NCBI GenBank assembly: GCA_051294905.1
Contig: CM119371.1
Coordinates: 8,992,001-9,052,000 of the forward strand
Reading direction: 5' to 3'
DNA: 60,000 nucleotides
From: Botryllus schlosseri
Taxonomy: Eukaryota
The notes beneath the pieces are model-generated. The model was not told where the DNA came from and searched no databases. It was given only the letters and a program-made list of their open reading frames with translations. Of the stretch, positions 1,319 to 52,390 are shown in pieces; within the stretch, counting starts at the first letter, position 1; the number at the start of each line of letters is the position of its first letter. Made by a program: the position numbers and the translations under genes.

Positions 1319-2496
1319 ATAACGAAAATGGAAAAGAAGAACCGTCCGTTGTGATGGAGCAAGATCAACCAGCAATTATACCATGTGCCAGTGGAACCAG
1401 GCGTGTTAGAGAGACCGGATTACAGCTGAAGAAATATGATTCTATGGCGAAGCAAACATCAAGATCACGTGAGTTTGTTCAATATTTAGTATTTAGGGTT
1501 TTTCGTAGAATATTCAGTATCGTGTGATTCCCGTTCCTTTACCCAAATCTAGTTATCATCATTTCATTTTACATTGAAACCGGCGGAAACCACTGGAAAT
1601 CAAGTGCATGGTTACCAATGGTGGATTATCCACATTTTCTATGCACGGCGTGAGGTGCATTGTAAATAAATGTGTGGATAGCCGTTGGGTTCTTCAGATT
1701 TCCGCAATAGGTTCGGGCGCAAATCACGCCATCTCCACTTTCTGATTGAATATGTATCGTTTTCACTATCATTGCTGTAGGTGAAAACGAGCAGCACATA
1801 CCTATCTTCATCGATTGGGGTATGATGCATCTTATATCTTAAATGGTTCTGTACCGATAGAAAAGGTTATCTGTTTTCACCCGGGCTCTGGTGGATATCG
1901 ATAAAATGTCGATAAAATTCATGATGTCCAATTTAATTCAAGCTCACAACAAACCAAAAATGACGTAAAGAAATGAAATGAAAAATACCAATACCTTTGA
2001 CATAAAATGATATTTTGATTTCAGTTCAAAGTTTGTGATTGTATACTTATCAACAATGAAGCGACCAGAGTCTCAACAAATGACAGTGATGCATTATAAC
2101 ACTTTATAAATTCTTTCACCGATTTGTTGCGAAGAATATCCTACGTATACCAGCATTTAGGTATAATGAAAACCAAGTGTGTACTAGCTAGTAGTATCTG
2201 AATTCCGATTCCAACATTCTAATAGGTCGCCATTCAAAGATGACCCGCTGCCGACTCGGGCGTAGAGCTAGGCGCCGGCGAAATATGAAGATCTACATAG
2301 AATTGGAACAGCTGCAATCTCTTGCTACGCCATAATACTGAATGTCACTGGATTGATTTTGCTGTCGAATGCCGTTGTCGTTGATATAACGTTCAACATT
2401 TTACGTGGAGGTTGTCAGCGCGTCGTGTTTCTTAGTATCGTCCCCAACATACGTGTGTTGTGTTTCTGGGTTTATATAGTGACTGAAATGCTATAG
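1319..2496 (+). pseudogene. Copy 0 of the tandem 2-TM gene family: short middle coding exon 1319-1468 and frameshifted terminal exon from 2226
   Basis: Same splice junctions as the other copies (ttgcag|ATAACGAAAAT...TCAC|gtgagt; tag|GTCGCCATTCAAAG). The 150-nt exon is open (DNENGKEEPSVVMEQDQPAI...QLKKYDSMAKQTSRS). The terminal exon hits TAA at 2333-2335 while the TM-like sequence continues in another frame. The first coding exon is not in the window. Confidence 0.7.
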
Positions 2497-3665
2497 ATGT
2501 ACGAGATAATAAAAAAAAGATATAGTCGGTTTTCGGATGTCATGGCGAAACAATCGTAACAGCTGTAGTACAATTCGAGCGTGCGATTTAGTGTTACACG
2601 TTTTGTAACCGTATCACCATTGATCAGAATCTTCTGGAATTCAAAGTGATATGCCTCGGATGACCATGCTTTCTTAATGCCCCTTGTTCATTGTTCAGTT
2701 AGGCGCGGAATGATGGAAATGGCTTTCTGGGTCATATAGGAATTCCGCTTCATTTGCACATTCAGTTCTTTAAAGAAGTGGGCGCCGCAGAAAATGGGGC
2801 AACAGTGGACATGATGTCGTAGGCTAGTTTTCATAGGAAGCCAGCGTTTTATATATGTATATGGCCTTGAGATCTCATAGCAAAATTCATTCATTCATTC
2901 CAACAAAAATTCATCAATTATCCAAAATTTTCGTCGAGCTTTGTGCGAAATATACCGTGTACCGACAATTAAATGTAGTGTTTCCACGGATGTAGTGTCT
3001 ACTTTGTTCCATCTTAAATGCGGTTTTTTTACGCTTCATCCACGTATCTTTAGAGAGCGTGATTGAACTGTGGCAAAATCTCCCTTAACACAGTTCGATC
3101 ACAGTGGAGGAAATGATTTGCTAGCAGCTCACTGCGTCTCGAAGTCTGGAGGAGTGGTTCTGTACCACTTTTGAGTGTGAGAGCAATTTGTACAGTAGAC
3201 ATTATATGAAGCTTCCTGACCAGAATGATTGAATAATCATCCTTGTTTACGAGAGCTACGAAATACAACGTCACCAAATCGGGAGATGTACACCAGATAG
3301 GGATGAGCCCGTACCCAACAGTTGTTGTATGAACCTTGATTTGATCCCGAAATAGTGCATACAATTATTAGATTGTTAATTAGTCCGAGTGGTCATTGGT
3401 CGTAATTCAAGAGCGAGATATTCCAATAGCCATGTCCAAACCCATAAAAATGGCCCGCACTTCGACCTGCCCACCATCGTCCTTGGTACAGAACTTAAAA
3501 TATGTGGGGCACCAAACCATGAAAATTTCCGAGAGCGCTGCTGGGAATAAAAAAAAGTTCAGAACAACAGCTTTGAAGTATAAAACAAACAAATACGCAC
3601 TATAGAAATATGTTTTTTTTTGTGGTAATTAATTGGAAAGGTGCTTTTGTCGAACATTAATTGTA

Positions 3666-4627
3666 GGGGAGATGTGGTACCGATGGATCAAAAATTGCAA
3701 AATGATCTCTTGCCCTCAAATCTTCAGCCGAGAATGGCAGATCTTTTGCTGTCTCAACACTTCGATACAAGCTCTACCTATCGCGGACATTTACATGAAT
3801 ATTCGCCTTCTCAAAAAATATTTATAAACGTTTAAAATTTGTTGCTCGAACGTGTCATCGGTCCTCACCCGGTGGGTCCAACGGCACACAACCATGGGAC
3901 CTATGAGACATACGCTCAAAAACTAAAATTTGTTAACTTGTTTTGTTGTGTACTATATGCTAAGCTACAGCAACCCAATGAAGAATGTTTCGTCGCGACC
4001 TTCAAGAATAAAATAGATTATATCAACTGAAATATTGGCATAAAATCATGTTTTGATATACGCCTAAACTTACAAAATTAATGCGACATACATATTACCC
4101 ACAAATCGACATTTTGACTTTCAAATAACTCGTAATAGCGATAAAACACCACAGGTACCTATGATTTACAGCCTATATATATGTAGGCGAGTTTCTGTTG
4201 TTAAGTGATTAGTTGGCCCATCTATTTTGCTTCATTTGGCTATGGTACCATAGGTCCCCCACCCCATAAATATCGTAATTGACTTGAAAATAGTCCACTC
4301 GAGGATGGTATTGATTAAAAAAATATGTGCCATTATATACCCTGATATAAGCCCTATACTTCACAGCAAAAATTATGGCGGGTTTGTTAGTCTGGAAGGT
4401 GATATAGAAAAATGCAAATGTCGATCCAAATTTACTTTATACCCCCTAAAACGTAAATCATTCGTCACAGACCCCATAACTCACGCAGGTTGCATTTTTT
4501 TGCCTGTGAGGGAAGATTCTGTCAGCATGTAACGATAGACAAATTCACGGAGTGTAATCATGGAATTATCATGGAGAATTTTTCAAGTATTTTCGGTCCC
4601 AGTGATCCATCGGTACCACATTTCCCC
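3666..4627 (+). mobile_element. ~960-bp non-autonomous DNA transposon (TIR GGGGAGATGTGGTACCGATGGATC, TA-flanked), copy 1
   Basis: ~24-bp TIRs at both ends flanked by TA. Homologous along its length to 5507-6466 in the opposite orientation. Confidence 0.85.
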
Positions 4628-5506
4628 TACAATACATATTTCATCCTCGCTCTAAGCATACGCTACGCTAAGCTGAGGTTGCGAGAAACGTGAAAAGAAG
4701 AGGTATGTTCACGAAACTGATATTCTTATAATGCCATGTGACTGTCTGATTGCTGCTATGGCGTGATAACGGTTCGTGGAAGATAGGTTTGTAGTGGATT
4801 GATATGCCGGGCAAACCCTAAATAGGTTCGATTTCGAAGATAGCGTGTCATGGAAACTTTTCAACCTGCAGCCAGTCGGATTACACCGTTATAACTGCAT
4901 ACCCGATCGCCTGGTGCCTTCTCAGAGCAGGAATATATGTCGGGAATACACAATTCATTGGCTCGTAAATATGTATTGTATATATCGTTATCAAGGATTT
5001 ATACCAGCAGTGGGGATAGCCATGAGAGATTCTGCTCTTTTGATTACGATCGGTTTCTAGACATCGAAGAAAACAATCCGTTCTATTCACTGCGCATTCC
5101 CCGAACTGCAGTACGATAAGATTCCACAGTACTCTGACAGAAAAACGTTTCATCAAGTATAACTATATAATGTAAATTCTGAAAGCCGTTTTATTGTGTA
5201 CCAAATAAAATTTTGTTTTACACATAAATACAATGACCTGAAGTAAATCCAAGTCTTTCGTACACTTTATTTCACGAATAATCTTGATCGTAGGTCGGTT
5301 GGTCTTGGATTCCCTACGACCAACACCACACGCTTAGATGCGGATCTCCGTATTGGACATGTGGTGAGATATCTATTTGTAGCGGTAGTTCCTAACCTTT
5401 TTTCTTCCGGCGACCCCGTTCAAAAATTTCCTTGGTGTTGCGTCCCCATATTTTAAGTATGTACTTATAGAAATTGAGGTAGGCCTCGAAGTCCTGATAT
5501 GTGGTA

Positions 5507-6466
5507 GGGGATATGTGGTACCGATGGATCAATGGGACCGAAAATACTTTGAAAATTCTCTATGATAATTCCATGATTACACTCCATGAACTTGTCTACA
5601 GTTGCATGCTGGCAAAATCATTCCTCACATACACAAAAATACGACGTGCGCGAGCTATGGGGTCTCTCACACATGTTTTTTGTTTTTGGGGGTGTAAACT
5701 AAATTTAAATCGACATATACATTTTTCTTCGTAACCTTCAACACGAACAAACCAGCAATCATTTTTTTGTGAAGTGTAGGGCTTGTATCTGGCTATATAA
5801 TGGCACCTATGATTTTTTTCAGTACCTTTCTTGGATGGAATTTTATCGATTCATGCATAAAATTCGTAGGGTGGGGACCGATGATACAATAGCCAAATCA
5901 AGCACAATAATCAAGCATACTAATCATGAAACAAGTGAAACATGCCTACGTACAGAAAATCTTCATGTAATAATTGCATATGATGTTTTATCGCTATAAC
6001 GAGGTATTTGGAAGTCACACTGTCGATTTTCGGGCAATATGTATGTACCCTCAAATTTATAAGTTCGAGCCTGAATCGAAACGTGATTCTATGACAGCAT
6101 TTGAGTTAATATTTATTCTATTTTTTGACGGTTGCGACCAAACATTCTTCTTTGGCTTGCTGTAGCTTAGATTATAATACTGAGCAAGAAAAGTTGTCAC
6201 GTTTGAGTTTTTTAGGGTATATGTGTCATAGGTCCCCGGGTCGTGTGCCGTTGGACCCACCGGGTGGGGACCGATGATACGTTCGAGAATCAAATTTTGA
6301 ACGTCCATAGATATTTTTTGAAAAGACAGATATTCATGTATATGTGCGCGATAGGTAGAGCTTGTATCAAAGTGCTGAGCCAGCAAAAGATCTGATGTTT
6401 TCGGCTGAACATTTTGGGGCCAGCGATCATTTTCCAATTTTTGATCCATCGGTACCACATCTCCCC
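5507..6466 (-). mobile_element. Copy 2 of the same ~960-bp non-autonomous DNA transposon, inverted relative to copy 1
   Basis: Same TIRs and TA flanks. The shared ORF-track peptides at 3641/3839 and 6057-6458 reflect the homology. Confidence 0.85.
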
Positions 6467-8099
6467 TACATTTCGGGTGTGGACTTGGTTATCCGAAATA
6501 TGTCGCGCGGAATCGCGGCTGCTGATCTCTCGGCTAATTAACGATCTAATATTTGTATAAAATATTCAAAATTAAGAACGGTCTTGGTTTGAGCCTAATG
6601 TATTCTCAACTGAACATCTGTTATATACATTTACTAAGATTGAATTTAGTTGGGTAAAATCGGGGGAATACTGCACCTAGTTCTTAGTCGTAACTTTTAT
6701 GTAGCCTACATCTTCTCCAAACAGATGAATCCATAAATAACTGGCATGTGAGGTTGTGGATTACAACACCGAACAGTATCATTATTTATGGTTAGATCTT
6801 AGATGACGAAATGCACTGAACTTAGAATACCGGAGGACAATCTTGCAAAAATTGTAAATTTTACCCACTTCGTGGTCGGCTGACTAAATAAAAAGGTAAA
6901 CTTTTTCACCCAGCGCCCTTCACATTTTCATTTTAACTTTCCGGCTCAGCTACCAAAATTTTCGCCGAAGCCTTACTTCAGTGCTGATTTACTGTATCTC
7001 AGTACAATTTGGCACTATATTTAACCAAACTTCTCAAAAAAGAGAACAAAATCTCGAAGAGGAGGACATTTAGGCGTCCGCGGAGGACGTATGGTAACCC
7101 TACTACTGTACAAATGGATTAAATAAGGTTTGAAAACTGCAAAAATCATAACTTCACTCTCACACTGTTTTACTTCCACACCTTGTATACAAGGGCAACT
7201 CTCCCAGATTTCGACACGCGTAGTGTAAACTACTATATTTGTCTAGTTCGGAACATGTAGTTGAGAAAACCCCTATCTAGTCCGCTGGAACTGTGCTTAC
7301 GCGGACTTTACGATCGGAAAGTACACGTAAGAAGCGCGTAATCCACATTTCACATTAATTATAATAGCCACTCCGTTTGTGGAAACATATTGGGTGCACT
7401 ATGGGTAATATCTTTCGCGTAAATCGCGACTAATCATTTGATAAATTTTGTATAAATTTGCGACGAGAACACGGGCATATACAGAACTATATAGTTCTTC
7501 TATGTAGCTATATATCCTCATGTCAAATACCACACCATCTATACAACTAAGACGATTTTCGTCACCGCTCCCGCATAGTCCCAGTGCCCACCTTCGTCTT
7601 TCACGAATGCTTTTGTTCCCTATAAAATCCAATTTGGCTCCTCGGGGGCAGGGCTCTGGACACTCTGGAGTCACAGTTAATAACCACCAGAGGTGGTCAA
7701 AGTAGTCAAGGAAGCTACTTAAGTAGAAGAAGAAGTAGCGACGAAAAAATCTACTCAAGTACGAGTAGAAGTACTTCTTTCATAAGCAACCTAAAACTAC
7801 TTGAAGTAGAAGTAGAATTTACTGACTTTAAAAGTACTCAAGTAAGTAAGTAGTTGTGAAAACGATCCTAATTCGTATTGATGCGTACCAGCAGGTATCA
7901 AATTTTCGGTAGCATATGCATTCGTCCACATCATAGGATAAAAATGATAGTATTATTACGGAAATGCAATACGTATCCTCTGTTTTCTCGAACAGCACGT
8001 TTTAGAAAATAGCATGGTATGACGCCATCTCCCATATTATAAGGTTCGTAGTTTAGTCGAAGAGCAATACGTAGAAGTTGTATTGGATACGGTGTAAAC

Positions 8100-11825: not shown

Positions 11826-11863
11826 ATCCTATATTGAGTGCGCCAGCTATCTAATGTAACTAT

Positions 11864-15009: not shown

Positions 15010-15880
15010 TGCTAGTCGCAACATTGATGCTACGATTCAAGAGCAGTTTCACTATTTTGTGCGAACACACCCACATCGCGATTACGTAACGTGTGGATTT
15101 AGTGGCAAAGTGATATTGTTGCGAGTGAATATTGTTCTTGGGCTCGCCCTTTAAGCTTCTAAGGAAATCACTGCACGATACCCCCGGAAAAATCAACGAA
15201 CTTCTTGAGAACAACGGGAGTGCGATATCTGTGATCTTTGTACTGCAGTGAATTTAGTGCTTGATTAATCAATAATACGATACGCTGAATGCAAAATAAA
15301 GAAGCTCTGTGTCTCAAAGAAGCTCTTCGAATACAAAAGTGATAATTTAATTCATTTTCCTTTCGTGTCCTAAATTCCGGCTGACTGGTGCGAATGAATT
15401 TTTTTTTTTTTAAAGTGTGAATGGACCTCACAAAGGTTGAAAAGCACTGCTCTACTCAATGTCACGACATCGGCTCCCATTATAGACACGTACCAGTAAT
15501 TATATACGAGTGCACTAATCGGAAAAGCGAGTTACAAATCAGCAATGTCGAATCGGTGAGCCTGTCTGCATTAGCATTGGTCTGGAGCGTGGCGTTTACG
15601 CTCAGCGTCGCGACAAGTGCATGGCATTCGTTCTTCAGCAAGATATCGTACTGTACAGCACTAACCCATTGCGTTGGTGCGTGGCGTTTATTTTCAGCGT
15701 TGAAGCAAGTGGCATTCATTCTTCAACAAGATGTCGTACTAGCGCTAACCAATTGCGTTGGTGCGTGGCGAATATGGGCAGATGTCTGCTGTTGCACATG
15801 ATACATGGGTCAATATAAGTCGCATTTACAATGAGAGTGCTTATTTTGATCTGAACAGTTGAAAGTATATTTTCTTAACC

Positions 15881-35381: not shown

Positions 35382-35390
35382 CAATACAAA

Positions 35391-36029: not shown

Positions 36030-36760
36030 GTAAAGGAGCTATATCTACCCATATTTTCAATTGTCAATGTCAATCCATTATGACGTCATAATTGAATATT
36101 CATGACGCCATGGCTTAAAATACACAAATTTAAAAACAATAAAAAACATGTTTTAAATTGGGGCCTCGTTATAAACATGCTTGTTTTTAATTGATTTTTG
36201 TTAATAAATTAAACCCTAGACATGATATTCTCCGTGTTGCAGTGATGCAACACTCTTTTCTAATCGTCTGCACTGGAATCCACCAATAATAAAAAGGTAC
36301 GCTGTACAACTGTATATGCACTATTGAGAACGGAAGCCGAAATATAAAAAAATAATACATGCTGGAATACAGTATTGATATGTAAACGAATCCACCTACA
36401 GAGGTACTGCGCCATGCGCAGTATTTGTAATGTCGTCGTTTGCTAACTTCAGCATCCAACCGGCACGCGTATAGTCGTAACGAGTGAAAATGTGTTCATC
36501 AATGATATTGAGATATCTTGGTCATCTCATTTCCTGACACTGTTACCCGCAGGTGTTCATATAAATGCTTGGGCAAGAATTGGCTATTTGCAATACCGAG
36601 TCTGCATGATCAGCATACATAGTATTTTGCGAGCCATCTATTAACAGCAACACTCAGCATATAGCCATGAAATGTCAGTTTCTAGGTTCCGATCGGTTCC
36701 TTTTCCTTAAAAAATGCAATCCATTTCTTTCTTGATACATTGTACGAAACGGCAGGATAA
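36030..36760 (-). mobile_element. Possible degraded Kolobok-like element with a P2RX7-C-terminal-like accessory gene remnant
   Basis: Minus-strand fragments ECCC, KRRHYKYCAWRS..FVY and IPVQTIRKE..(GEY)..GF resemble the Cys-rich P2X7-like domain. taaaggagc terminus and TGACGTCA motifs near 36031-36110. Multiple frameshifts. Confidence 0.35.
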
Positions 36761-36884
36761 TTGTGTCCCCTGAAACTAGTACGTTTAATAAAGTCGAGCC
36801 CTATTTTGAAAAAATGCTTCAAGTAACCTATTGCTATTTGCTACCGAGTACAGTTCTGTGTGTTATATTCATATATTTACAGTG

Positions 36885-37481
36885 TAGGGCTGTTCAAAAA
36901 TAACTTTTTCCCCCAGATTCAAGCCATTCACTGATTAAATTGTCAGGTTACCGTGAAAAACGCTGTACACAAAATTTGCTTCAATTCTAACAAGTATACG
37001 GCTCCGCAGATCCAATTAAAAATTTTAATTTATTATGATTTTTTTTTTAAATTATCGAATTTTTCTGTCGACCCCACGAAATTGTTGAGCTGTCTTCAAA
37101 TACGATGCAAAACAAATTTGAGTCAATTCCAACAAGTAGAAGCGGAGTTATTTGAGTTTTCCGTTGATAATTCAACAATCAAAGATAATCCGAGAATTAT
37201 CAACGAAAAACTTGAATAGCTCCGCTTCTACATATTGGAATTGACTCAAATTTGTTTTGCATCGTATTTAAAGACAGCTCAACAATTTCGTGGGGTCGAC
37301 AGAAAAATTCGATAACTTTAAAAGAAAAATTCCTAATAAATTAAAATTTTAACTGGATCTGCGGAGCCGTATACTTGTTAAAATTAAATCAAATTTGATG
37401 TGCAGCGTTTGTAGGGTAACCTGAAAATTTAATCAGTGAATGGCTGGAATCCGGGAGAAAAGGTTATTTCTGAACAGCCCT
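36885..37481. mobile_element. Foldback-type palindromic element related to 25139-25757
   Basis: tagggctgttcaaaaataac...gttatttctgaacagccct. Long inverted arms around a central aatcaaagataatccgagaatt. TSD not clear. Confidence 0.88.
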
Positions 37482-38789
37482 CATGCACAGATACCCCGGA
37501 TTTTGCCCACATTGACTCGTGTATAATATGCGCCATATAACCAACTCCAACTAAAGTTGATGGACTATGAGACCAGTCAACTTCAGTTGTTGTTGTTTGT
37601 TGAAACAAAGATTTGTCGCATGTCAGCAATGGCGCAAAAGACCTACAGTTGATAAGCGCTAAATTATTCTTTTAATAAACAACAAGAACAGTAACAACAA
37701 CAATAACTGAAGTTGACTGGTCTCATGGTCCATCGAACCACGACCTCACGCACTCACGTGGATCACTGTAGTGGTAGCGATATATATATTTCCAGCGACC
37801 AGACCTGGAAACGCCAATGAAATACTATTCCTCAAGTAGTTTCGTAGTATTCAGTGAGGTCAGCACCGTTACTCTCAGGCAGTCGGACATATTCCTAGAT
37901 GTAAGATCTAATTCATGGATGAGTGCAATTCCTAACAAGCTCCTTAAGCATCCCCCAATCAGCCACCATATCCCCAAAATACGCCGGCCATCAATTGTTA
38001 CTGTATCATAGAGTCTGCTATCATTCATACAGCAAGATCATTAGAACATTGTAACGAAACCACCCTGTATTTTTTTTGTTATATCACTAGGCTAGACAAC
38101 GGAGTCACAACTGGAAGTTGTTGTTGGTGGTGGTCTGTTTGTTTGCGGTATTCATTGTGTTTGGCGACTACTAATGGTCATTTACACCATAGGCCGATAT
38201 TGTTCATAATTTTCCGTAACTGCCGACTTATAGCACGGCCCACCTCTATGCTTTTCATAAGACACCGCGTACGCCAATGAGGTGGCAAGGAGGGGCCTAG
38301 CAAAACCTCCAACACTTAGGGTGGATTGCACAGATGTCGATTAATCCCTAATCGCCGATTAAACGTCAGTAATCGGCTGGCTTCCGTGGCACAGATGCCG
38401 ATCTGCCAGTAATCGGCGAATTTTAATCGGCAAAATGTTATCCGCCGAGCGAGGTGTCTAGAAAGTTAATCGGCTGTGTGCTTCGCGTTGACTGCGGTCT
38501 GGGTTGGCTACAGGTACACTAGTATTTGGTATTGAGATGGTGTTAACGGGATGCTCTGACGTGCAGTTGCGTTATTAGCTGAAAACATTGTACTCAGGCA
38601 CTACTACAACTGTTGGCGCATATTATGGGCGTGGGCCTACCACAGCCGATAGTACCTTATGCTATGATTACCGGTATGACATTTTTTACAGACTGTAATG
38701 TACAGTGTACAACTGTACATACACTGTACAGAATTCGATAGTATACTTTTGAAATAGAATACGAGGACGGAAAATTGCAACAGACAGGA

Positions 38790-40359
38790 AAAGTTTAGAA
38801 TAATAGCAAAAAAGTTATATGCATCACGACGCGTCGAACGGGCCAAACTGGCCCACCTCCAGTTGACGAACTCCTTGGAAAAGGTTTTCGATAGGTAATT
38901 TTACTGACAATTCTTTAAAATTCGCAGTAGGAGATGTATTGTTTCCATCTGTGTTTATCGTGACTCTCTGCGTGCTTCATACTCACGTTTTAACGCTCGT
39001 TTTGAACCGAATAGACAAATTTTGATGATCATGAGAAACATGGATTTATTGTCTTTTTGTAATTCCCAACAAACTAACCATATCCAGAGACTGCTGCACG
39101 TCATCAGCTATACGAAAACGCCACATGGGGAACACTGCTCAGCAAATTCCTAATCTGAACCGCTCCTTGATCAATCTGCAATTGATTTTTATAGCACTGG
39201 TATATTTATTATCACTTTTCAGACCTTATTCCATCTCAAATTGAATGTTTGAAACATCGGTATGACTACGATTGCGTATTCGATAGTCACACGAACAATG
39301 GTGAGTGCATTTAGGACATAAACTTTTTTAATATGTTACAACCAACGACAGAGGAACTTGCATCCAATTTTAACTTGCAACAGTCTGGCTACTGTGCTGT
39401 GCAGGTGCCTGAGCAGTATCGTTGGCCATATTATTGTTAGGCTTCCAACTTGACTTGAAGATATGACTTCGAGTCAGGATTTCTCATACCGTATGTCATA
39501 TTGAAGCAGTGACTCGAGTCAAATCCATTCATCCTATTCCAACTCGAGTCAAGACATGATTTTAGTCATCCATCCTTTCTATGTTTCGCGAGGTTAAGAT
39601 AAACCGTGAAAAAATAATTTGAAAGTAATTTTTCTAATGTATTTCTAACTAAAATTTTTAAATAAAATGTTTATTCAGATGCATAATCCGAAGATTCAGT
39701 TTGCACCTTCATCATCGACGAGGATGTGAACGCAGAGGCTGGTTCTTCATGTCATAACAGCGATGGTAAGTTGAGGTACTAATTTGAAATCCATATGAAT
39801 CGTGTTCGTACTAACATAGCCACACTAATACTTCAAATAGAACATTGCGGGTTGTTTTGATTGACATTAACATTGCTCTATTGAATTTGAACTCTATTGA
39901 ATCAATACAACTGTTGTTAACCATAGTTTTCTTGCAGCAAATGAAATTGCTGCCCTTTTCGTTGTTGATGGCGATGTGACGCTTCCTTCAGTTGCCTCGA
40001 CAGACTTCAGGATGGAACACCAGACCGGTAAGTGTTAGCATACAATGATGGTGATGCAACCCACAGTTTATTCATTACTACATTCAGATATGCAAGATGA
40101 GACAGCATTACGACATTCAGATATGCAAGATGAGACAGAGAACACAAAAAGCTCAACGCCAATTGTCTCGAAAAAGAGAGCCAGGTGTGTTGATGAAAAA
40201 AATCATATTTTAACTATAATGTTGGTGATCAAAATGTGGTGTTCAGAAATGAGCGTCCTGGAAATGGCAAAGGAGCAGCATGATATCAGAATGAAACATT
40301 TTGAATTACAGATGCATGTCAAGTACCAGAAACTGGAAATGGAAGAACTGCAAAATTGA
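38790..40359 (+). pseudogene. Harbinger accessory (Myb/SANT-like) gene remnant, multi-exon (e.g. 39679-39765, 39938-40027, ~40118-40183, 40247-40359)
   Basis: Series of short GT-AG exons encoding an acidic linker and a C-terminal coiled coil (EMAKEQHDIRMKHFELQMHVKYQKLEMEELQN*). TGPPP-like motif near 38850. In-frame stop at ~39684. The Myb domain itself is not clearly readable. Confidence 0.5.
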
Positions 40360-40786
40360 GAAAATACAGCAACGAATCAAAATAGCACAAAAACCAGACT
40401 TGGACAACTAGTTAATTGGGGCTGTATAATTAGAATAGTAAGTGCAAAATGCCAGTAATATAATTCTAACTTAATTTCTGGTTTTGCTGAAAATTCTACA
40501 GTAGAACTCTACAATACTAAGCGAGTTGTGCAGATTCAATTTCCAAATTTTCACATATTCAGTAATCCCTATTCTAATTTAATTGAAAAATAACTACTGT
40601 GTCTATAATTCTATTCTAATTTGGAAAAATATGCAGCCATAATTATCATTATAGTCTTAATTTTGAAAAGTTGATTTTCTAGTTGTCCAATTCTGACGAC
40701 AGCATAGGCTACTGGATCTCGTAATAAAAATAATTGACGAGGAATTGAATGTGGGGTTTTTGGTGTTCAAACACGAGATGAAATAC

Positions 40787-40960
40787 TCAAGACATTCCGA
40801 CAGAGAAGTGATTTTGAACAATCTGTCTGCGCTGAAGTTGTGCCGTCACGTTATCCGTGTCGCTAACCTCCAGGGTATATTCCAATGGATTTGCTCTGTC
40901 TTTGACCAATCTTCTTGGCACTCTCTCTTCTGCTTGGCTCTCTAACATCTGGAGGGCAGC
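40787..40960 (-). pseudogene. Harbinger DDE nuclease remnant: N-terminal and C-terminal motifs fused by internal deletion
   Basis: RRLVKDRANPLEY (typical HARBI1-like N-terminus) is followed ~15 aa later by QRRQIVQNHF (typical C-terminus). No DDE core. Confidence 0.55.
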
Positions 40961-41675
40961 AAGAACATTGGGGTATGGATCCGTGGTTATTCTCAGTCGA
41001 TATTGCACTATATTAATATAGCTCTCTATAAAAACAGGTTGTATTGAATTTTATGGTTTACCAAATTCTTGATAAACTGAAGCGGGGTTTGGCTGTCAAC
41101 AAACAAGATTACTCAACTGGGTAACAGCAGATAACTTTGCATTGCAAAATTGTAAAATAAATGCATTACTGTTTGTACAGCACTTGGGCACATGTATGCA
41201 TATGACTTATTATATGATAACATCGTCACATTGCACAACAGTTGGATCCTTGCAATGGCTGAAATTTACTTCTACACTCCTGCAGAACCAATTGTCATTG
41301 GTATGGAGAAATCAAAATCGTATGCAAATGTGTGTGTATGAACTCAATTTGTATATCTTCAACTTCATATTGGTGAAGTGGCTATCATGACTAATGCACC
41401 AATAAACGGAAAATAAAATTATATCTGAAAAGTGTCTATCTAGTTCTAGATGTCCCTGAGTAATGAGATAAATGTCCTGCAATATACGAAATTTGTAGTG
41501 GAGTTTCTGGCATAGCAATACCGGTATAAGACGATGATTTTGGTACGCTATTCCTACAATACCTCTTTTCATAACCTCAAAACGTTTGTTCTGACGCGTT
41601 CTGGCGTTCATGACCTTACACTGTGCAGTAGCAACAGTTTAGTTAGCTGCTACACGCACATGACATCAACTAAAC

Positions 41676-43206
41676 CAGTGGTTCTTAACCTTTTTTCGTC
41701 CAGCGCCCCCTTTCAAAAATTATCGTGCTCCAGCGCCCCCCTCAACTTCATATTATAAGGAATGTAATAAAGACAATGAGTACGAGGGAGGGCCGTAACA
41801 GCACTTCGTCAACCCCCCTAAAAACGATTGCCTTGCGCACCCATAGCGTGATAAACCGAACTTCTGAGGGCTTCGCCCCCAAGAACCCCATATCGTGATT
41901 TTGATGGTCAGCAAAGTTTGTGTGGCCTGGTCGCCCTAGGTACCAAAATTTGCTATAATGCATGGTAATTACATTTATAAGTCGCTATAAACTTTTTATC
42001 CTCTCAGCCCACGTAATCAGATTTACCAGTAGCACTGAGTGAGCTGTTGTATAGGAAAATAAGGGGCACGTAATTAATAACCAAACATATTCGGGCGTTC
42101 CCGCAGGTACAATTATTCGTTACCAGGGCCGTAACAGCACTTCGTCAGCCCCCCTCCCCAAACATAAAACGTTGGTCCTGGGCTCCCATCGGGTGATAAA
42201 CCAAACTTCCGGGGGACTTCGCTCCAAGACCCCCATTAGGCTGTCCGCTATTTGCTGATAGCCTATTAGGTCTCTACATTGGGTGTACATTTACTGAGGG
42301 AGCTATTCTCGCGTAGTCGCGCGATGTGCGAAAAATTTCACTAATTAATGATTGAATTGGTCAATATCATCGGGAATTGCATGTAAATTGAGATCAATTT
42401 TTATCCCCTCTCTGCTCACGTAAACACATTTACCGGTAGAGCTGAGTTAGGTGCAATGTTCCCTCTAAGCTGCGCACGTGCGCAGTGCTGACACGGTCTC
42501 TGCGCACAGAAAATCTACGTTGCGCACAACAAATCCGGAGTTATTACCTTTTTTTAGTCGTTACGCACTGTTGTCCAAGGATCAGCGCAGTGAGTTGTTG
42601 AGTGTGCGCAGACTCATCAAAACTTAAAGCGAACATTGTGAGGTTTCTTGGAAACTGTAGGGCCCGTTACCAATAATTAAACATATTCGGGCAGGCGAAC
42701 CCGTTGGTATGACCTCGTTACATGATGTTATTTCGTGACCCCCTGTCTGCAATATAAAAAATATAGAATCGCTCAACGGGGATATCGCCCAACAGGAATA
42801 TCCCTGTCGCCCAATCGTACTAAACTAAAAGACGCACACGATTTCAGATTGGTATTTCTTCACTGACGTATAATTTTTCCCTGCCAGATGGAATTCGTCT
42901 TCTGGGGTTCAGATTTCCAAGACAGGAACATTCGGTGTCAGCCATTTAGGCGCCCATGGACAATTAAACCTATATGTATTTTGAAGGTTATATGTAACGA
43001 AGTTTTCGGTGTTAATTTGCTCTGAATACTCATTAAGGATATGTCCTATCACCACATCATCTACTGCGAAGCCATTTTTCTCCAGCGCCCCCCATACCGC
43101 CCCCCTGAGCCCAGCGCCCCCCATATCGCCCCCTGAGCGTTTCCGCCCCCCTTCAACATCGCCAGCGCCCCCCGGGGGGCGCTGGGGGCAAGGTTAAGAA
43201 CCACTG
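41676..43206. mobile_element. hAT-Charlie-like MITE (TIR CAGTGGTTCTTAACCTT) with CCAGCGCCCCC repeats, nested in the Harbinger; contains a small nested element at 42454-42638
   Basis: Perfect TSD aactaaac. The inner element has TIR caatgttc...gaacattg. Confidence 0.9.
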
Positions 43207-44133
43207 AACTAAACATACATATCTATGAAGAGCGCATCTCTCCCTTATGACGACACAGTTCATATCGCCACCAACCGAAAACAGCTGATTGCTAACGTAC
43301 GTCATTTGCGTCAGTAATCCGCGATAAGATAACTCACAGGCGAATCCGTATCTGTACCACAGAGTCACCAGGTGACCTTGCTCGCTGATTAAATTATCGC
43401 CGATTAAGGCAATCGGTGATTACTTTTCAATCGGCATCCGTGCAATCCACCCTTAGGTATCATAATTCTGAAGTCGACCTCGGTCGGACTCAAACCCGCA
43501 CCCATTGGTGTTGCAGTCGCGGATTATTCCACTGCGCTATCTCGCCACTTGTTATAGTTATTTCACTAGGCTGGACAACGGGCCCAGAAGTTGTTGTTGG
43601 TGGTGGTGGTATTGGTGGCGTTTGTCAATCACAGTGGTCATTTACACCAGGCCGATATTCTTTACTGTGTTTCCATATCTTCCGATTTGTAGCACCGCCC
43701 AGTTTCAGGTTTTTATAAGTCACGACACACGGATGAAGTCACTGGAAGGAGCCTAGATAAACCTCCAACACCTGGGAAATGATTCCTTGAGTCGATGATT
43801 CTATTGCGATATGTCACAGTCAGAATTCGATCCGGTACCCCGATCAGACTTCAAGTAATGATGAACAAGACCACTAAGCGAAAAAACGAGATACCAATCA
43901 GCTTCGCAAATTAGTGAGCCCGTATCCGGATTCACTTTGACAAGTATCGTTGTAGCTGAAAGCGCCATTCTACTAGCAACATGTTGTCTTGTGCAGCACT
44001 TCCTCATTGCATTGCTCCGTACCTAATATTGACGAAAGCTACCACTAATGTCCAAGATGAAGGCGCGACTATGAATTAATCTATATTACCGAAGTGTTGA
44101 TATTGTTCTGAACAGTTGATAGCTTTTTAAATA

Positions 44134-47100
44134 ATGAGTTCTGGTAATGCGGACCAACAACGTTCTACTCCCAGTATGTCGAAGGATGGATCGCTGAAGG
44201 AAACGCGCGACAAGTCCGACGATGATGAAACCGGTTATGATGTCGAAGAAGAACAAAAAAGTAAGCTCATGAAATCATATGGGCAAAGCACCCTATTCGT
44301 GATAGATGTAGTTGTTCTGTTCTAGGCCTAATTGCTTGACGAAAGTATTTTCAGTAGAACAGGACTATGTATCTCTTACGTAAATAAGTATGGACTTGGG
44401 ATCGCGGTAATTACAGGAGGCAAGCCCCTCTAGACACATGACAAGAGGAATGTAGAAAAAATGATTGTAATCCACACTAATGACGATATTTTTCAACTGG
44501 AATTGCAAATGAATGTTTGAATATTGGCACAGTAAAATTGGTCACACCTATCTTAAAAAACAAAGAGGGGATGAGGTAATAAATACACGAGATGAAGCTT
44601 AGTATATGCCTCCTACTAGTTAGGGTATGAAGAACTACTAGCATCCGAGCTGAGCATTCTTCCTAATTGGGGAGAGACACAAAGATTACAGTACTCGAAT
44701 CGAGCATTACCTTTGATAGTTCTAGTCGGGCAGTGAGAACGGATTCTGCTGAAATTATGTGCGCCTTGCATTGCTGGGATGACTGCTGAGTCATGAATTG
44801 ACTCGAGTCACCTTTTTCGTAAAGTCCTCAAGTAATCGTTGTCGATAAAAATCATGTGCTCGGATTGTTCGCGAAACGCAGGTGTAAGTGTAACCCGTGA
44901 GAGCGACCAATCATTCAATGGTCGTGCGTTTTACTGAGCCTTCACAAACGGAGTGATCAAAGCTTACAGCTTACGTTGTCCTAAACTAGTGGTAAAGTAA
45001 TTTAATAGAAAAATATCCATTTCTGTTCTCAGCTCTTACCTTAATCTAACGTCTTGTTTTATTGAATTTGAATTCGAATATAGCTTATATACTCCTCAAC
45101 CATTGGCGCAGGCTCGAGTTGTATCATATCATAGCAATATGTAAATGGGTAAAGGGTAATGTATTGCATCTTATAAATTCGTTTCTCTATTCTCTATTTT
45201 GGTTGGTACCTATAAACTGAGGTTACGTATATGTGAGCGATACAGCTCCTTCTTGGGTTTATATTCAACTCTGTATTCGTTCATCGGTTCAGAATCGGTG
45301 ACCAATGGCCACTCAATCTGTATTACAGACAGCTAGCAAAATGTAATGACGTAATCATGCCTCTTACTCCGAGAGGTAACCTGACTCGTGATTTGACTTG
45401 ACTCGAGTCACTTCCAAAATTTGAGTGACTTGACTTGACTCGAGTCAACATGTGTCATAACTCTAAATGACTCGCAACTCGAAGGATGTGACTTGATCGA
45501 AACACTGGCGCATTGGCACTATTATTTAATTTATAAATGTGAATGAAACTTTCTATACTATTTACCGCGGTTGAAACCTCGATTAGTCGTATCGCAGCAT
45601 ACGAAACATGCAGACTTGTACAAAACAAACATTTAGTTAGTTGATTGTCAACTAACCAACGGTTTTTGAGAAGTTCTACTTCTAGTTCTGGTTGCTGATT
45701 TTGAAAATTGAGTAGTTGTAGTTCTAGTTCTAGTTGCAGATTTCAAAAATTCTATAGTTCTAGCGCGTGGCACATTTGAAAAAATTAGTTGCCGAACAAA
45801 TAGAAAACACGTGTCGTGGTTTTGGGCGAATTGAGATGCCGTTTTTTTATTGATTGATGTTTGTGCAGCCATTGCTCGCTCAGTTCCATCACTGCTAATA
45901 GTGGCGTAGCTTTTTTGGATCGTCATCTCCCATTTCAAACTAGAAATCCCATTTTTTGAAATATCGATTCAATTTCCGATATTTCCGATAAAATAAAAAT
46001 TATTGTGTTGACTAGGAGAATGAAATCCAGATGGGCAATAATTTTATGAGAATAACAGGCCGGAAAATGTTGGCGAGCTAAGTCAAAAGTTTGCACTATA
46101 CTTGGCGGTGCATCTATTTCTAATAATTTATAAAGTGAAAGCAGTGAATTACGTGATTAACACAAGCTTTGGGTGAATATGTTACTATTGGGAAATTAAG
46201 AATTTATAATTTAGGTTGCCAAATTAGTCAACATTGGTACTTAGGTAATGTCAAAACTACATCAAACTACATCAATTTTTCGGAACAGCTCAAACCTAAT
46301 CTTGCAGATAATGAAAATGCGAAAGACGCAGCGACCATGGGGATTGACAAAGAGCAACCATCAACTTCTTCGGGTGCCACTAGAACTAATCAGAAGGAGT
46401 CGGATAAGATACAGGAAAGCGTTGCATGCGGTGAGACAAGTAAATCAGCACAAGACTGCGAAATACCGCGCGAATCAGTATTGCATGCGGTCACCGCTGG
46501 AGGAGTCGGTCCACAGATCTCCGGAGAGTTGCTACCGACCAGAATTATATATAGAAGAGCGCAACTAGATGAATATGCTTCTATGGCAGCGCCAACACCA
46601 ATATCACGTGAGTTTTCCCTAGGGCAGTAAACCAGAAAACTAGTCAAGGATCAACTTGTTAGCCAATTTGGCGTTGTTTATTCCCGTGCTCCACTAGACG
46701 AACATCAATAACACTGGTCTACACCTTTCGAAAAACTTTTTGCGATAAAAATTTCATTGATTTATTTAGGCTAATTTAAGGTTGCTGAATCCGATTCTGT
46801 GCTCAGAATTTCTCTATCGCGCCAGATTTTTTCTGTATGAAATCGTCTCTTATCTATAAATTAATCGAATTTCGGCTTTCGTTAGTAACATCACGGTTTG
46901 CGGTTAGCATACACCAGCAACAGATCAAATATTGTTATTGTAATCATGTGTCATGAAACCAGGGTTTTGTATGTAGTTTTCTCATTTTCATAAATTAATC
47001 AAATTTCGGCATTCGTTAGCAACAGTTCAAGTATTGTTATTGAAATGATTTGTAATGATGAAACCTTGGTTGTTGTAGAACAAAATAACTGAGTTTTCGA

Positions 47101-49003
47101 TGACCTTCAATCCAATGGTTCTCTATATTCTTTCGATCAGGACCTTTTTGGAGCCATAATATATATGTGGATGCAACTATTTTTAGTCGGTAGCAGTTAT
47201 CAACTTGATATCCCATTCTTAGTTTAAATATTATGATAGATCCGTACCTAATTTAGTTCCCTACGTTCTCTATCTTTACATATCTGTCCTGCAGACTTAA
47301 CCGGTCAATGCATTTTTGACAGCGCACTGCTCATTTGTAACACGGTAATGGTTGCAAACAATAAACATTGTATTGTTGGTATATCATGAAGAAGAGAATT
47401 GTTCACTGCGGCACATGACCCAAATATGTGGCCCGTTCAGCTTGTTTAAACATTAAAAGAAACAGGATGTCTGCTTCTCCAAATAAAAAAGTGATTATTA
47501 TGATAACTTGAAAGAATTTGTCATCATTAATCTCCGCCTTTACTTTTCATGCTAATTCTTTTTCTCCAGTTTCCATATACTGTCACATTTTATCCGAATG
47601 GAGGAAAGCTGTTTCTGAACTGTTTTTCTTTTGTTTTATTGCCATGATACAAAGGGATACTTTTGCATTGTCTATTATAGACAACCAGAAGAATGGAGAC
47701 TGCTTACTAACACGAAACTTGAAGTGCGTGTTACTTCACAATATGAATACATACGCATCGGTTCTAGGACAGTCGATTCGTCTCGTCATAGGACATTCTG
47801 TGGCTTACACCAAATACCATTTGTTCTATGCTGAAACAGGGGCAGAGATGAACACTGGTTGATTTCTATTGATGTTTTTAAATGGTTTCGGGGCTTTTGG
47901 TTATTGTTTTGCATAATTAAACGCCAGTGACCTATTTAGACACGAAAAATAGGTCGACACTGTCGGGGGGAAAGTGATAACCTTCAGGCTGACAAATACT
48001 GATATAAGCGTTACGGAACATAAATAAATGCCCTAGGTATATGTATGCTCATCGTCCGACTTAGTCACAATGCCATATTCGCATTATTATTGGATAATTT
48101 TTTTTTATAATGCGTCTCTTCGACGCCTGGCGTCCCTATTCGCAAACGATCGAATGATGTCTCAGAGAGAGAGAAAGAGATATGGTATTCTTTTTCGCGT
48201 GCACCATCGAGATGCTTTGACGACGGAGATGCGATACGGCCTTTATAGTAAGGTCATCTAGTCTGCACCCCCGTTTTTTCTCCTCTCAAGTCGGGGTGTG
48301 GGCGATACGTATGTATCAGAAAATGCATTATCTTCGAGATTGAATCTAAATGTCATGATGTAACTTTATGCCTAAAACTTCGCAAGAAATGGCGCGTAGG
48401 TGAATGTCTCAATAATCCACAGGTCATTTGTGATTGAAGAAGCAATCTTTTGATAAGGCTGGCACTCCAGGATAAGAATTTAGGGTTGCTAATGATTAAA
48501 TCGAATGACTAATTGCTTTGCCGTTGTTGAATGCTTGCGAACCAGAAGTGTTTGCATTTTCCATCTATTGATCCCATGTCCAGTGGACATTGTCCACCAA
48601 ACGTTCCCTATTGCGGTAACGACAAACTCATGATAGCACTTCAATCTCAATAGGTCAGCAATCTAAAAGGATCCACCGCCATCTCGCAAGGCGAACGGTG
48701 TGCCGGAAGAAGGCGATGATCTATACGGTGGTGGTCGCAGCTTGCGTCACGTGCACCGTTTTGGTACTCATTGCCACCGGCGCGGCAGTGCTGCCGGACG
48801 CCGACATACGAACGGTCAGCATTTACGCGACGATTTCCAGCATGATCTTGCTTCTTTGTTTCTTCGCCTGTAGTAGTCTGTGGCTCGTGAGAGTATCGAC
48901 AAGTGTGCTAGATGTTCCAGCTGGGAAGAATGACAGGAAGGATTCCGGCGGTGATGACGACGCCAGCGCATCGACCCCTGTACAAGAAGACGCAGCGGAT
49001 TGA
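44134..49003 (+). CDS. Copy C, uncharacterised two-TM membrane protein (258 aa); coding exons 44134-44260, 46308-46607, 48654-49003
   Basis: Canonical phase-1 junctions (A|gtaagc; cttgcag|AT; TCAC|gtgagt; aatag|GT). Continuous ORF with conserved motifs LKETR..DDDE, LP.RII.RRAQL.E.A.MAAPTP, QQSKRIHRHLARRT, LPDAD and two TM helices. Confidence 0.85.
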
Positions 49004-50692
49004 ATGATGCGAGTTTAACTCGCCATCGTGTGGTTGATCAATAATAACTAAAATATTCTAAATCTCATTGTCAAGTTAGTGAAATTCTTGGGTTTTGCAG
49101 AAACCGTTGCCCATTAGATTTGGCTTCAAACTATTGTAGTAGATAACTTAGAATTGCGGCGAGAAATTCGATCTATAATAATAAATTGCCCCCTTCCAGT
49201 TTTATCATTAGCAAAGCTTCGCCACGTTGAAATTGGTCAAAGCTGATGTGTGGCGTTTTGTTTAGGGAACCCAATAATTTTATCGACCAGTCAGTAAACT
49301 ATCAGAACAAAAGTTATTCTTGAACATCGCATATTTAAGTAGTATTCAAAAATAAAAAGTGCTTTACCTCGGGTGATACGTTCTGTGCAACTATGGGTGC
49401 AAATATGGCTTCCCCGTCACGCACATTTATCGTTTGATCAGGCGCGAAATTGTCGGTCACTTTTCCGGCCGGAGTACTGCAATGCCTCTTGTAATCCCAC
49501 ATTCAATTTTAAGTACGTCTACATGCATGGAGTACCGAGTTTTCGTGTCGTAAAAGGAATTCATTTTGAATATGAAAAAATATATTTGTGTGTGGACTGG
49601 CATTGAAAAACATGTTCCGTGTGATCTTGGATAAGTGTATTACTTGTCATGGGCCATGTTCTGCCCAATGATGTGACAGAAGGGGAGCATCTGCAGATTG
49701 TCATTTGAGCCTGTTGAATACTTACGAAAATCTGATGATGTCAAGTAAACGTTACAGAACCATCTTTGAGAGGGAGAATAATTCGTGGCAATCTAGCACT
49801 TCGAGTATCCTGGGCGCCGAGATAGAGTACTATTACGTTGCGCCGCCGCAATGACGGATTGCAGGTTCACGTCCTATTAAGATCGTCTGCATAATCCCTC
49901 CGTGCGTGTCGGAGGTTTATATCGGCTCCTGTGAGCCATCCGTTCCCCGTAAATAGTCCAATCAGGAACGAAAGAGGGTCATGCTATAGATTGGCTTCTC
50001 AGGAATCATAATGAGCAGTTTCAGCAATACCTAAAGTCCAAGATTTGGCGAGATGATGATTAAGAAAAGAAAGGGGTAGTCTAATTGCATCATTTGATTG
50101 TTCGGCCCGAGGTTCTATGATGGCGGTGACTAGAAGAAAGGTAAACATTTTGGGCCACATCTTCAAATCACGACCCATTTACACGGGTGAAGACCTTTTG
50201 TTTAGTTGCCAGCTTCTAAAATTCTACTATATGTGGCTGAGTTGGCGTTCCATTGACATTGACAAATGGATGCCCCGGTTTTATTCTTGGCAGTATCGCG
50301 TTCTGAGCGTCCTAGGTATCCAAGATTCTAATCGCGTAAGTCGCTGAGCTTACATCGGACTTACAAGAAAGGCTCCGATCAAGGACGAATTCAGGGAAGA
50401 GAATGGAAATAGGGAGGGACCTAAAACATGAAAGATCAAGGTCGAACACCGCTACATTTCGCATTAGGTTATGATAATGACAGATTGAGAGAGCGTGCTT
50501 GGTCGTTTCACCGTTCTTTTGTTTGTTCATACATCGCTCTGTATGTTGCGTGTCTTCAGCGGACTATGCCATGCTAAGGATTTACTTAATTTTTGCTGTA
50601 CGTCGACCTTGTTTACCACAATGCTATGCAATTACATTCAAAACAGAAGTGACGATCTAACTCTGAATAGTTGACAGTTCATTTTCTTAAAC

Positions 50693-52390
50693 ATGAGTAC
50701 TAGTGATGAGGACCGACAACGGCCTGCTTCGAGATTGTTCAAGGTTAGCGCCTTGAAGAATACACGTAGCAACACCGACGATGATGAAACCGGCCTTGGT
50801 CGCGCATAACGACCAAAATATAAATCACCATATTCGTCATAGATATATACTTGTGCTAATGTTGGTTAGTTGTACGTTCGTACATTACTCAGGTGGTATT
50901 GATTTAGAATACTTCAACGGCTTTTTAGGCAAGCCGCGCTCAAATTTTACCAGATATGTTAGGAAGTATAAAGTAAGCTAATATTTAGATATAGCCAATA
51001 CTTGCATCGTTCTCCTGAGTGAAATTGTCATTGGGAGGGATGTTACTCCTTTCCTTAGTTATATATACCAACGAAATAGCGTAATGGTGAAGCATCTGGC
51101 TTCTTGATCCGTAAGTCGCGGGTTCGATCCCCGGCCGGGTCAGACCAAAGACCTGATTAGTAATACTGGTATCCGTGACTTCCCGGCTTAGTGCTCATGA
51201 ATTACTGGGATAGCATGGGAGGGTGGTCTAAGACTGAGAAAGCCGTAACAGCTATATATACACCTTCCATGTCCAGCGGCATATGCACATCATGCACTCA
51301 TGGTATGCATATGCACGGATCGTGTGTATGTGTATATCTCTATATCATGAGTCGGTGTGACCAAAATAAACAACGCCCTTTCCTTTTTACATGATACTCC
51401 CGAAGATTCAATTGCAAATTTGAAGGCTGTCATTGGCGATTTCCCGGAAATCGCTGCGTTGGGATAATCAATTCGCACAAATCGAAATTTGCAAACACAG
51501 TTTCTCGAGATTTACCTGTAGTAGTAGTAGTATGCCGAATGCCATTATTGTTTCCTAACCAACTATTATGACATATATTGAATACCTTGAAATCACCAGA
51601 GAAAACTCACTCAAGGTAATACTACCTTACAAAGAGTATGATTTTGTAGCAGTGTGGTATTTTCTAGCTAAGTATTGGAAATATTATCGGGGAATGTCTA
51701 TCAACGTTATATCATTTGGCGTAACAACAAATAATGACATACAGCATTTTTTAGAAACTGGATCATCCCGATCGCCTTTAGCTATATGAAGAGGGGAGAC
51801 CCTTATATCATAACAAGGTTAATGAGTAAGTTTTTGAGGAGGCGGTAATCAGGCGAGAAAGTTAAATTATCGAGACATCAATTCTTGCGCAACACAAAGA
51901 TAAAATTCCGAATTGAACAAATATACCAGAGAATACGCTATTTCACGTCGATTTGCGACATTATGTCGGGGCCTTTTTGATGTTGCCTCCCATCATTTGG
52001 GTTGCAGATTGCAGCTTTACGAGTGTGACTCTACTCTGAACCATCAGGTCACCATTTTCTAGTTACAGCTCATATAAGGTTGGTCTTGCAGATGATGAAC
52101 TATAGCAACTTTTGTAATTGAGCAAGACCAACTATCGATTACACCAATTCCAACAAGTGTAACTGGTTGGAAGGCGTCTGATAAGATGCAGCCAAATCAA
52201 TCGAATTCGAACAAGGTTATGAGTGTTCGTACAACGCATTCATCACGAAAGGTGCCACCACCGACCGAGTCAGTTGCTTCTAAAGGAGCCGTTGAACTTG
52301 CCCCTCTAGAGGTGCTTCCGACTAAGATTATTTACAGATGATCACAGCTACAGGAATATGTTTTAATGGCGGTGCCATCATCAATATCAC
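50693..52390 (+). pseudogene. Copy D pseudogene: first coding exon from 50693 with premature stop; middle exon 52092-52390 with frameshift, TGA and GC donor; no terminal exon found
   Basis: MSTSDEDRQRPASRLFKVSALKNTRSNTDDDETGLGRA*. Middle exon cttgcag|ATGATGAA...IEQDQLSITP...LPTKIIYR*SQLQEYVLMAVPSSIS then C|gcgagt. Confidence 0.8.
51072..51390 (+). mobile_element. tRNA-derived SINE, family 2, copy 1
   Basis: tagcgtaatggt A-box, gggttcgatcccc B-box, then cgggtcagaccaaagac and a body shared with the copies at 52634 and 58602. Confidence 0.85.

Follow-up and report, generated by a model that had tools for sequence, protein, structure and literature searches.

Which protein is encoded by an array of repeated exons to which no known family could be assigned, and do these exons belong to working genes or to the remains of genes? 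The question is raised by a 60-kb stretch of the genome of Botryllus schlosseri (C1:8992001-9052000, where C1 is contig CM119371.1; about 40% G+C, 0 N; assembly of 495 Mb), referred to below as the window. The window is rich in repeats, and the original prediction had proposed for it a tandem array of five paralogues encoding a membrane protein with two helices. We conclude that the array very probably represents a real, selected and lineage-restricted gene family that evolves by duplication and decay, the products of which are predicted to combine a disordered N-terminal region, a membrane hairpin and an acidic tail. The array itself is confirmed, and the core of the interpretation given with the prediction is supported.

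Gene models and transcripts of the array

Translation around the predicted positions, a motif scan and inspection of the junctions yielded five family copies (c1 to c5), arranged head-to-tail and all located on the + strand, with the middle exon starting at 1319, 16768, 31209, 46308 and 52092, in each case exactly where it had been placed. The unit consists of three coding exons: exon 1 runs from the ATG to a phase-1 GT donor, exon 2 lies between cag and GTGAGT, and exon 3 follows cag or tag and runs to the stop. Splicing c2, c3 and c4 in silico by coordinates gave open frames of 249, 252 and 258 residues, respectively. Since in these copies exon 1 measures 109, 109 and 127 nucleotides and exon 2 288, 288 and 300 nucleotides, all junctions are in phase 1, in line with what had been claimed for them. 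A tblastn search within the window found exon 1 in four copies (c2 to c5), exon 2 in all five and an intact exon 3 in three (c2 to c4), the pairwise E-values for exon 3 ranging from 1e-15 to 1e-41. The motifs that had been described as conserved were recovered in part: KETR occurs in three copies, DDDE in four, and [KRM]RIHR and LP.AD in three each, but the IIxRRxQL...MAAPTP block is complete only in c2 and c4 and is changed in c3 and c5.

In c2, exon 1 (15881-15989, +) starts with the ATG, is 109 nucleotides long and ends at donor GTAAGA, exon 2 (16768-17055, +; 288 nucleotides) is preceded by the acceptor dinucleotide AT in place of AG, and exon 3 (18212-18564, +) encodes the basic stretch, the two helices, the acidic tail and the stop of the 249-residue product. 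The AG sites closest to the altered acceptor would give out-of-frame exons, the closest in-frame ones lying 60 and 63 nucleotides within the exon; because all junctions are in phase 1, skipping of exon 2 would leave the frame intact. For c3, the exons are found at 30198-30306 (+; 109 nucleotides, donor GTATGA), 31209-31496 (+; 288 nucleotides) and 32685-33046 (+; product of 252 residues), and this is the copy that was seen expressed and spliced. In c4 (exon 1 at 44134-44260, +, 127 nucleotides, donor GTAAGC; exon 2 at 46308-46607, +, 300 nucleotides, acceptor AG and donor GTGAGT; exon 3 at 48654-49003, +, product of 258 residues) every splice signal is intact. The exon-2 donor GTGAGT was found in four of the five copies, c5 having GCGAGT.

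Spliced reads across the predicted junctions had been named beforehand as the test of these models, and such reads were found for both junctions of c3. Four raw-read RNA runs carrying the same species label were mapped to window 30100-49100, a stretch outside of which c2 lies, and only 6-13% of each run was read. In run X3, nine reads with seven start places join 31496 to 32685 (GT..AG), which is exactly the predicted junction between exons 2 and 3. Eight further reads of this run, with six start places, join 30304 to 31207 with reported ends GG..GC, and we read this joint as the predicted GT..AG junction 30306/31209, assuming that base 30305 is an A in that animal. An A at this position would turn AGG into AGA, both encoding arginine, and would thus be a synonymous single-nucleotide polymorphism. 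As 849 of the 1003 reads mapped from X3 are 95-99% like the window, base differences of this kind are to be expected. The depth over c3 was nearly nil in X5, X6 and X7.

Another feature common to the copies is a 13-mer, TCTGAAYAGTTGA, that ends 14-18 nucleotides upstream of the ATG in c2 to c5 and has no other occurrence in the window. Its four matches compare with 0.26 expected, and four were reached in none of 100 shuffles. The element is located at 15850-15862 (+) in c2, where it reads TCTGAACAGTTGA and ends 18 nucleotides before the ATG, at 30167-30179 (+) in c3, at 44107-44119 (+) in c4 and at 50662-50674 (+) in c5, where it reads TCTGAATAGTTGA. The conserved TCTGAACAG|TTGA could be a start-site element or a trans-splice acceptor, and the position of the 13-mer before the ATG of four copies may point to shared regulation.

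The two outer copies, c1 and c5, are pseudogenes. In c1, the exon-2 remnant (1319-1468, +; 150 nucleotides) is in frame and retains both acceptor AG and donor GTGAGT, about 138 nucleotides of the middle having gone in comparison with c2. The exon-3 remnant (2226-2520, +) retains the tag|GT acceptor and is a pseudo-exon, frameshifted and with several stops, in which the basic juxtamembrane part lies in one frame and helix 1 with the loop in another. Within the window it was found only with relatives from outside this genome (P0002, P0003 and P0005, see below) as tblastn queries, and it was recovered again, with one TAG, when the whole genome was searched with an outside relative. For c1, neither the window nor the 20 kb upstream of it yielded an exon 1. 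In c5, the exon-1 remnant (50693-50809, +) retains the ATG and has an in-frame TAA at 50807, right behind DDDETGLGRA, and the exon-2 remnant (52092-52390, +; 299 nucleotides) carries a 10-nucleotide gap near its start that shifts the frame, a TGA within IIYR*SQL and a donor GC in place of GT; tblastn with the window copies and the outside relatives found no exon 3 downstream. Six-frame searches of the whole assembly with five different queries gave matches at two places only, the array and a single cluster of relics some 630 kb off on the opposite strand, comprising an exon-3 relic without helix 1 (C1:8363474-8363683, -) and two exon-2 relics with one stop each (C1:8365629-8365931, -, and C1:8357627-8357812, -).

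Predicted architecture of the protein and its relatives

The protein is about 250 residues long, and its N-terminal 145-160 residues are probably disordered, being polar and rich in Ser/Thr and in acidic residues. In all three open copies the charge-hydropathy line puts the first 130 residues on its disordered side; these residues contain 0-2 tyrosines, and tyrosine-motif signalling is therefore unlikely. Conserved within the N-terminal region are KETR..DDDE and, in a short predicted helix, IIxRRxQLxExA, behind which comes MAAPTPxSR. A model of exon 2, in which the only helix covers the IIYRRAQLDEYA motif, reached a predicted local distance difference test (pLDDT) score of 49.2; its alignment held three sequences, so that the low confidence proves little. 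Immediately ahead of the membrane lies a polybasic stretch, KRIHRxLAxRTxxRxK, and the block from the IIYRRAQLDEYA helix through KRIHRxLAxRT is the best kept among c2, c3 and c4, with 21 of its 40 columns invariant.

The basic stretch is followed by a hairpin of two hydrophobic helices of about 25 residues, linked by some five residues (LPxAD), and by an acidic tail, some 30 residues in length, that contains a conserved [IV][ST]xGDxEA motif and has an acidic C-terminus. The helices had been predicted, and hydropathy and structure modelling agree on them: each copy has two stretches above 1.6, with 19-residue Kyte-Doolittle maxima of 2.1-3.2 in c2 to c4, and the AlphaFold model of exon 3, built on an alignment of eight sequences, has helices at 2-45 and 51-85, a loop at 46-50 and a disordered tail of low confidence. 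A signal peptide had been stated to be absent, and indeed there is no hydrophobic N-terminus, the Kyte-Doolittle maximum in the first 60 residues being below 0. The acidic nature of the tail is borne out by its composition (9-13 D/E versus 3-4 K/R). The 15 residues ahead of helix 1 contain 4-6 K/R and 0 D/E, which together with the loop of about five residues is consistent with the topology that had been proposed, so that both ends would be cytosolic with almost nothing exposed on the other side. Among c2, c3 and c4, invariant columns number 3-4 out of 20 in each of the two blocks composed largely of membrane helix, and eight out of 20 in the block with the loop.

That the family had not been recognised holds for all collections searched, in none of which it is annotated. 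The Pfam scan of six exon translations (24,736 Pfam-A models) gave no match at the curated cut-off, the best being DUF2721 (E 0.0021; 18.4 versus 28.3 bits). A profile search of the PDB sequences yielded nothing specific, its best E of 0.0093 falling on a helix of an amino-acid transporter, Foldseek against the PDB was without a match at E up to 0.001, a two-helix hairpin being a weak fold query, and the best score in the ESM Atlas, 0.81, is under the lead threshold. An exhaustive search of 1.84 billion protein representatives with an exon-3 profile gave six matches at E up to 0.001, of which five are real relatives (E 3.8e-22 to 7.1e-14; 104-133 residues); the sixth, P0006 (661 residues, E 2.4e-4), is a repeat protein and was rejected as a chance helix match. 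No longer relative of the c4 exon 3 was found among 608 candidates scored in a word-indexed search. The literature yielded no description of such a family, which is weak evidence as word searches are blind to sequence.

The five outside relatives are unnamed single-member clusters from Logan assemblies, located on contigs of 1.2-2.6 kb and consisting of exon 3 only. One of them is preceded by the same intron-end sequence as the window copies and was therefore read from genomic DNA. Their identity to the window copies is 31-44%, and as six-frame searches with P0001 and P0002 showed them to be absent from this genome, they come from other genomes. Common to them and the window copies are the basic stretch, LIVTGV..LPNA[SD], a small residue in helix 2, the [IV][ST]xGDxEA tail motif and an acidic C-terminal VQ[DE], and L38, G42, L46, P47, A49, A71, L75 and A103 are invariant over the eight exon-3 sequences. 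A Cys in helix 2, listed before as a conserved feature, is present in the three window copies and in none of the five outside relatives at that column. A conserved N-x-S sequon in the loop of four of the five outside relatives was considered as a glycosylation site and rejected because the window copies have no sequon; at this place a sequon would sit too near the membrane for glycosylation.

What is added here to the collections is thus a gene model with exact exons and RNA-supported c3 junctions, where before they held only the five unnamed exon-3 fragments. Animal genomes commonly contain tandem arrays that encode small lineage-restricted membrane proteins, and the family is of this ordinary kind; it opens no long-standing question and gives no indication of an unusual mechanism.

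Selection on the reading frames and possible role of the family

c2 and c3 make up a single colinear duplication of about 3.6 kb that has no terminal repeats. They are sisters (support 99/98) in a tree of nine exon-3 sequences in which four of the six inner branches are not settled. Their exons are 77-87% and their introns 76-82% identical, and the two kinds of sequence differ in their indels: 35 events were counted in about 1840 aligned intron bases and only two, of 3 and 6 nucleotides, in 750 exon bases. When 144 random substitutions were introduced, a stop-free frame remained in only 1.06% of 5000 trials. The scarcity of exon indels and the avoidance of stops, despite a divergence near that of the introns, show that the reading frames have been under selection. 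The residues appear to be mostly not under selection, with the exception of the short motifs by the membrane and in the tail. Since their split, c2 and c3 have undergone 23 and 27 residue changes, respectively (p 0.57), and given these equal numbers the change in the c2 splice site is probably recent.

Birth-and-death evolution with partial pseudogenisation had been suggested for the family and is supported by tandem paralogues of differing age (synonymous divergence, dS, of 0.25 and about 0.8), by the broken copies c1 and c5 beside three open ones, by the splice lesion in c2 and by the relics at 8.36 Mb, which comprise at least three exons. With frames that stay open while amino acids change at close to the intron rate, the family offers useful material for work on orphan genes and on disordered membrane adaptors in tunicates.

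What could such a protein do? We propose that it may act from the cytosolic face of the membrane as a hairpin-anchored adaptor or regulator, which would offer its short linear motifs and a lipid-facing polybasic segment to cytosolic partners; alternatively, the hairpin might tune a partner membrane protein. It would have no role as a receptor of outside ligands. The probably disordered N-terminal part, the outside loop of about five residues and the selection on the frame fit a cytosol-facing adaptor better than a receptor of outside ligands, and the size of the loop argues against direct recognition of external ligands, which makes a function in outside recognition unlikely. A long disordered cytosolic region at the membrane and almost no outside part are also features of LAT-type adaptors and of the Botryllus protein BHF. 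LAT has one helix and tyrosine motifs. BHF is an ascidian protein under the plasma membrane that belongs to no named family, is without a membrane helix and is held by probably palmitoylated cysteines (PMC12065747). As it has no membrane helix (PMC12065747), BHF was rejected as a relative of the window family; the likeness would be one of analogy, and no sequence relation is claimed.

Several observations weigh against this interpretation. Nonsynonymous divergence (dN) is high: c2 and c3 differ by a dS of 0.25 and a dN of 0.21 (dN/dS 0.85, Nei-Gojobori), and against c4 both have a dS of about 0.8 and a dN/dS of 0.66-0.70 (Nei-Gojobori), which agrees with the fast divergence that had been predicted and, over the whole range of 0.66-0.85, implies that constraint at the level of residues is weak. 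The exon-2 acceptor is AG in four of the five copies, the exception being the AT of c2. Junction reads were obtained in one of the four runs and for no copy other than c3. None were listed for c4 in the four runs, which at 6-13% of each run read is no evidence of silence, and the depth over c4, the copy with the cleanest splice signals, stayed near zero, at 0-0.29 in the bins of its first two exons and, in X3, at 0.92 in the bin of exon 3. Compared with all X3 reads, exon 3 of c3 differs at 32760, 32781 and 32864, corresponding to A25V, V32A and V60I, so that the three best-supported RNA differences all change an amino acid. The AlphaFold model of exon 3 is of middling confidence (mean pLDDT 66.5), and the topology comes down to the positive-inside rule and hydropathy. 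No exon-2 relative outside this genome was found among 216 candidates of near length scored in a word-indexed search, and comparison of the eight-sequence exon-3 alignment with proteins of at least 234 residues found no full-length relative among 8000 scored. Finally, the adaptor mechanism derives from the architecture. We therefore distinguish between the gene family, of which we are highly confident, and the adaptor mechanism, which we put forward tentatively as one possibility; the two blended into one overall explanation are somewhat likelier right than wrong.

An array such as this could also be a decaying cluster of orphan genes that have lost their function and drift, in which case transcription of c3 would be leftover or noise and c2 to c4 would be heading for the state of c1 and c5. 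A dN/dS close to 1 would fit, as would the death of two of the five copies, the lost splice acceptor of c2, the absence of the MAAPTP motif from c3, the low RNA depth of c3 and the silence of c4 in the four runs, and the further relics at 8.36 Mb. However, drift does not readily account for two exon indels that are both multiples of three against 35 indels in introns, nor for a stop-free frame that has a chance of about 1% after the changes observed between c2 and c3. Moreover, c2 and c3 changed at equal rates, motifs are common to five outside relatives at 31-44% identity, and the 13-mer before the ATG has been retained even between copies at a dS of about 0.8. We consider loss of function to be unlikely.

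Equally unlikely in our view is a fast-evolving recognition, immune or reproductive family, in which purifying and positive selection together would give the near-neutral dN/dS and the turnover would reflect an arms race. Immune, recognition or gamete functions had been offered as speculation in the original prediction and gain no support here. This explanation draws on the same dN/dS values while frames stay open, on the tandem turnover with pseudogenes, on expression in one of the four runs only and on the three nonsynonymous RNA differences in c3. The latter, however, are conservative replacements inside the helices, the sole part that could face outward is the loop of about five residues, LPxAD, which is among the best-conserved parts, and three sequences are insufficient for a site test. 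A related and more far-reaching possibility, which we regard as doubtful to a still greater degree, is that the family is confined to tunicates and under diversifying selection as a disordered adaptor anchored by its hairpin. Acting on the cytosolic side, it would assemble polymorphic membrane receptor complexes or tune them, in a role comparable to that proposed for BHF in Botryllus allorecognition. If so, copy number and sequence would vary among individuals.

Known two-helix families and other features of the window

The build of the family recalls that of PIRT (phosphoinositide-interacting regulator of TRP channels), an accessory or regulator-type protein and not a receptor. Both are small and free of a signal peptide, and are built from two membrane helices that a very short loop connects, with presumably cytosolic ends and a juxtamembrane polybasic stretch. 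Unlike PIRT, the window family combines a probably disordered N-terminal region of some 150 residues with an acidic tail, carries its basic stretch before helix 1 and not after helix 2, and was found only in this genome and in the five fragments. TMEM100, which has been proposed to modulate partner membrane proteins, is likewise a small two-helix hairpin, but is about half as long as the window family and differs from it in its motifs. Neither PIRT (PF15099) nor TMEM100 (PF16311) was listed for any of the six exon translations at E up to 1.

Close downstream of the array, the minus strand carries a second pair of open reading frames encoding two helices (window 56520-56876 and L016:3966-4385). 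The two are mutual paralogues (E 7e-7) in tandem, and the proline-rich open reading frame L016:1-342 (-) may be an upstream exon of 56520-56876. The latter has weak Pfam matches below the cut-off to PIRT (E 8.6e-4) and TMEM100 (E 0.008). These neighbours resemble the window family in having two hydrophobic helices, a short loop and a tandem arrangement, but differ in their strand and in their C-terminal tail, which is basic where that of the window family is acidic. With an hhalign probability of 1.2%, the neighbour was rejected as a relative.

Could the array nevertheless belong to one of the named two-helix families (PIRT, TMEM100, neurensin/TMEM74, CD225/dispanin or barttin), at a distance too great for detection by sequence? 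The build of a small two-helix protein with a short loop and charged cytosolic ends would allow it, and the weak PIRT and TMEM100 matches of the opposite-strand neighbour could be taken in the same sense. Against this, the neighbour is unrelated, and none of the named families appeared at E up to 1 for the six exon translations; neurensin/TMEM74, CD225/dispanin and barttin are Pfam families as well, and their profiles gave no match in the Pfam-A scan of these translations. The PDB sequence search and Foldseek also pointed to nothing specific, and a long N-terminal region is not known from PIRT or TMEM100. Orthology to a named TMEM family would have spoken against the original prediction, and no such family matched; we regard this explanation as very unlikely.

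That the genes are cargo derived from a transposon or virus, copied by transposition instead of tandem duplication, is extremely improbable, since the occurrence of several copies, some of them broken, in a window full of repeats and transposon pieces and the relics in opposite orientation 630 kb off are outweighed by five whole-genome searches that match only the array and one relic cluster in 495 Mb, by the common orientation of the array copies with their conserved introns and promoter-proximal 13-mer, and by the colinear c2/c3 block of about 3.6 kb without terminal repeats.

Some other features of the window were observed. The open reading frames 19338-19760 (-) and 28110-28562 (+) had no Pfam match at E up to 0.01; by eye we take them to be transposon remnants, one reverse-transcriptase-like and one zinc-finger-like, for which Pfam gave no support. 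Between c3 and c4 an unannotated spliced transcript is found at 39299-41500, with GT..AG joints in X3 from 39299 to 39678 and from 40181 to 40309 and a depth of up to about 16 in X7 and of 8-10 in X3; two open reading frames from this stretch have no Pfam match. A repeat family at 38209-38255 and 43492-43662 is heavily represented in the RNA of three to four runs, with backward joints (43662 to 38209) and numerous loose ends, a pattern compatible with transcription of the repeat from its other copies. Just downstream of the c1 remnant lies an inverted repeat of about 970 bp with 79% identity between its arms (3659-4630 and 5504-6473).

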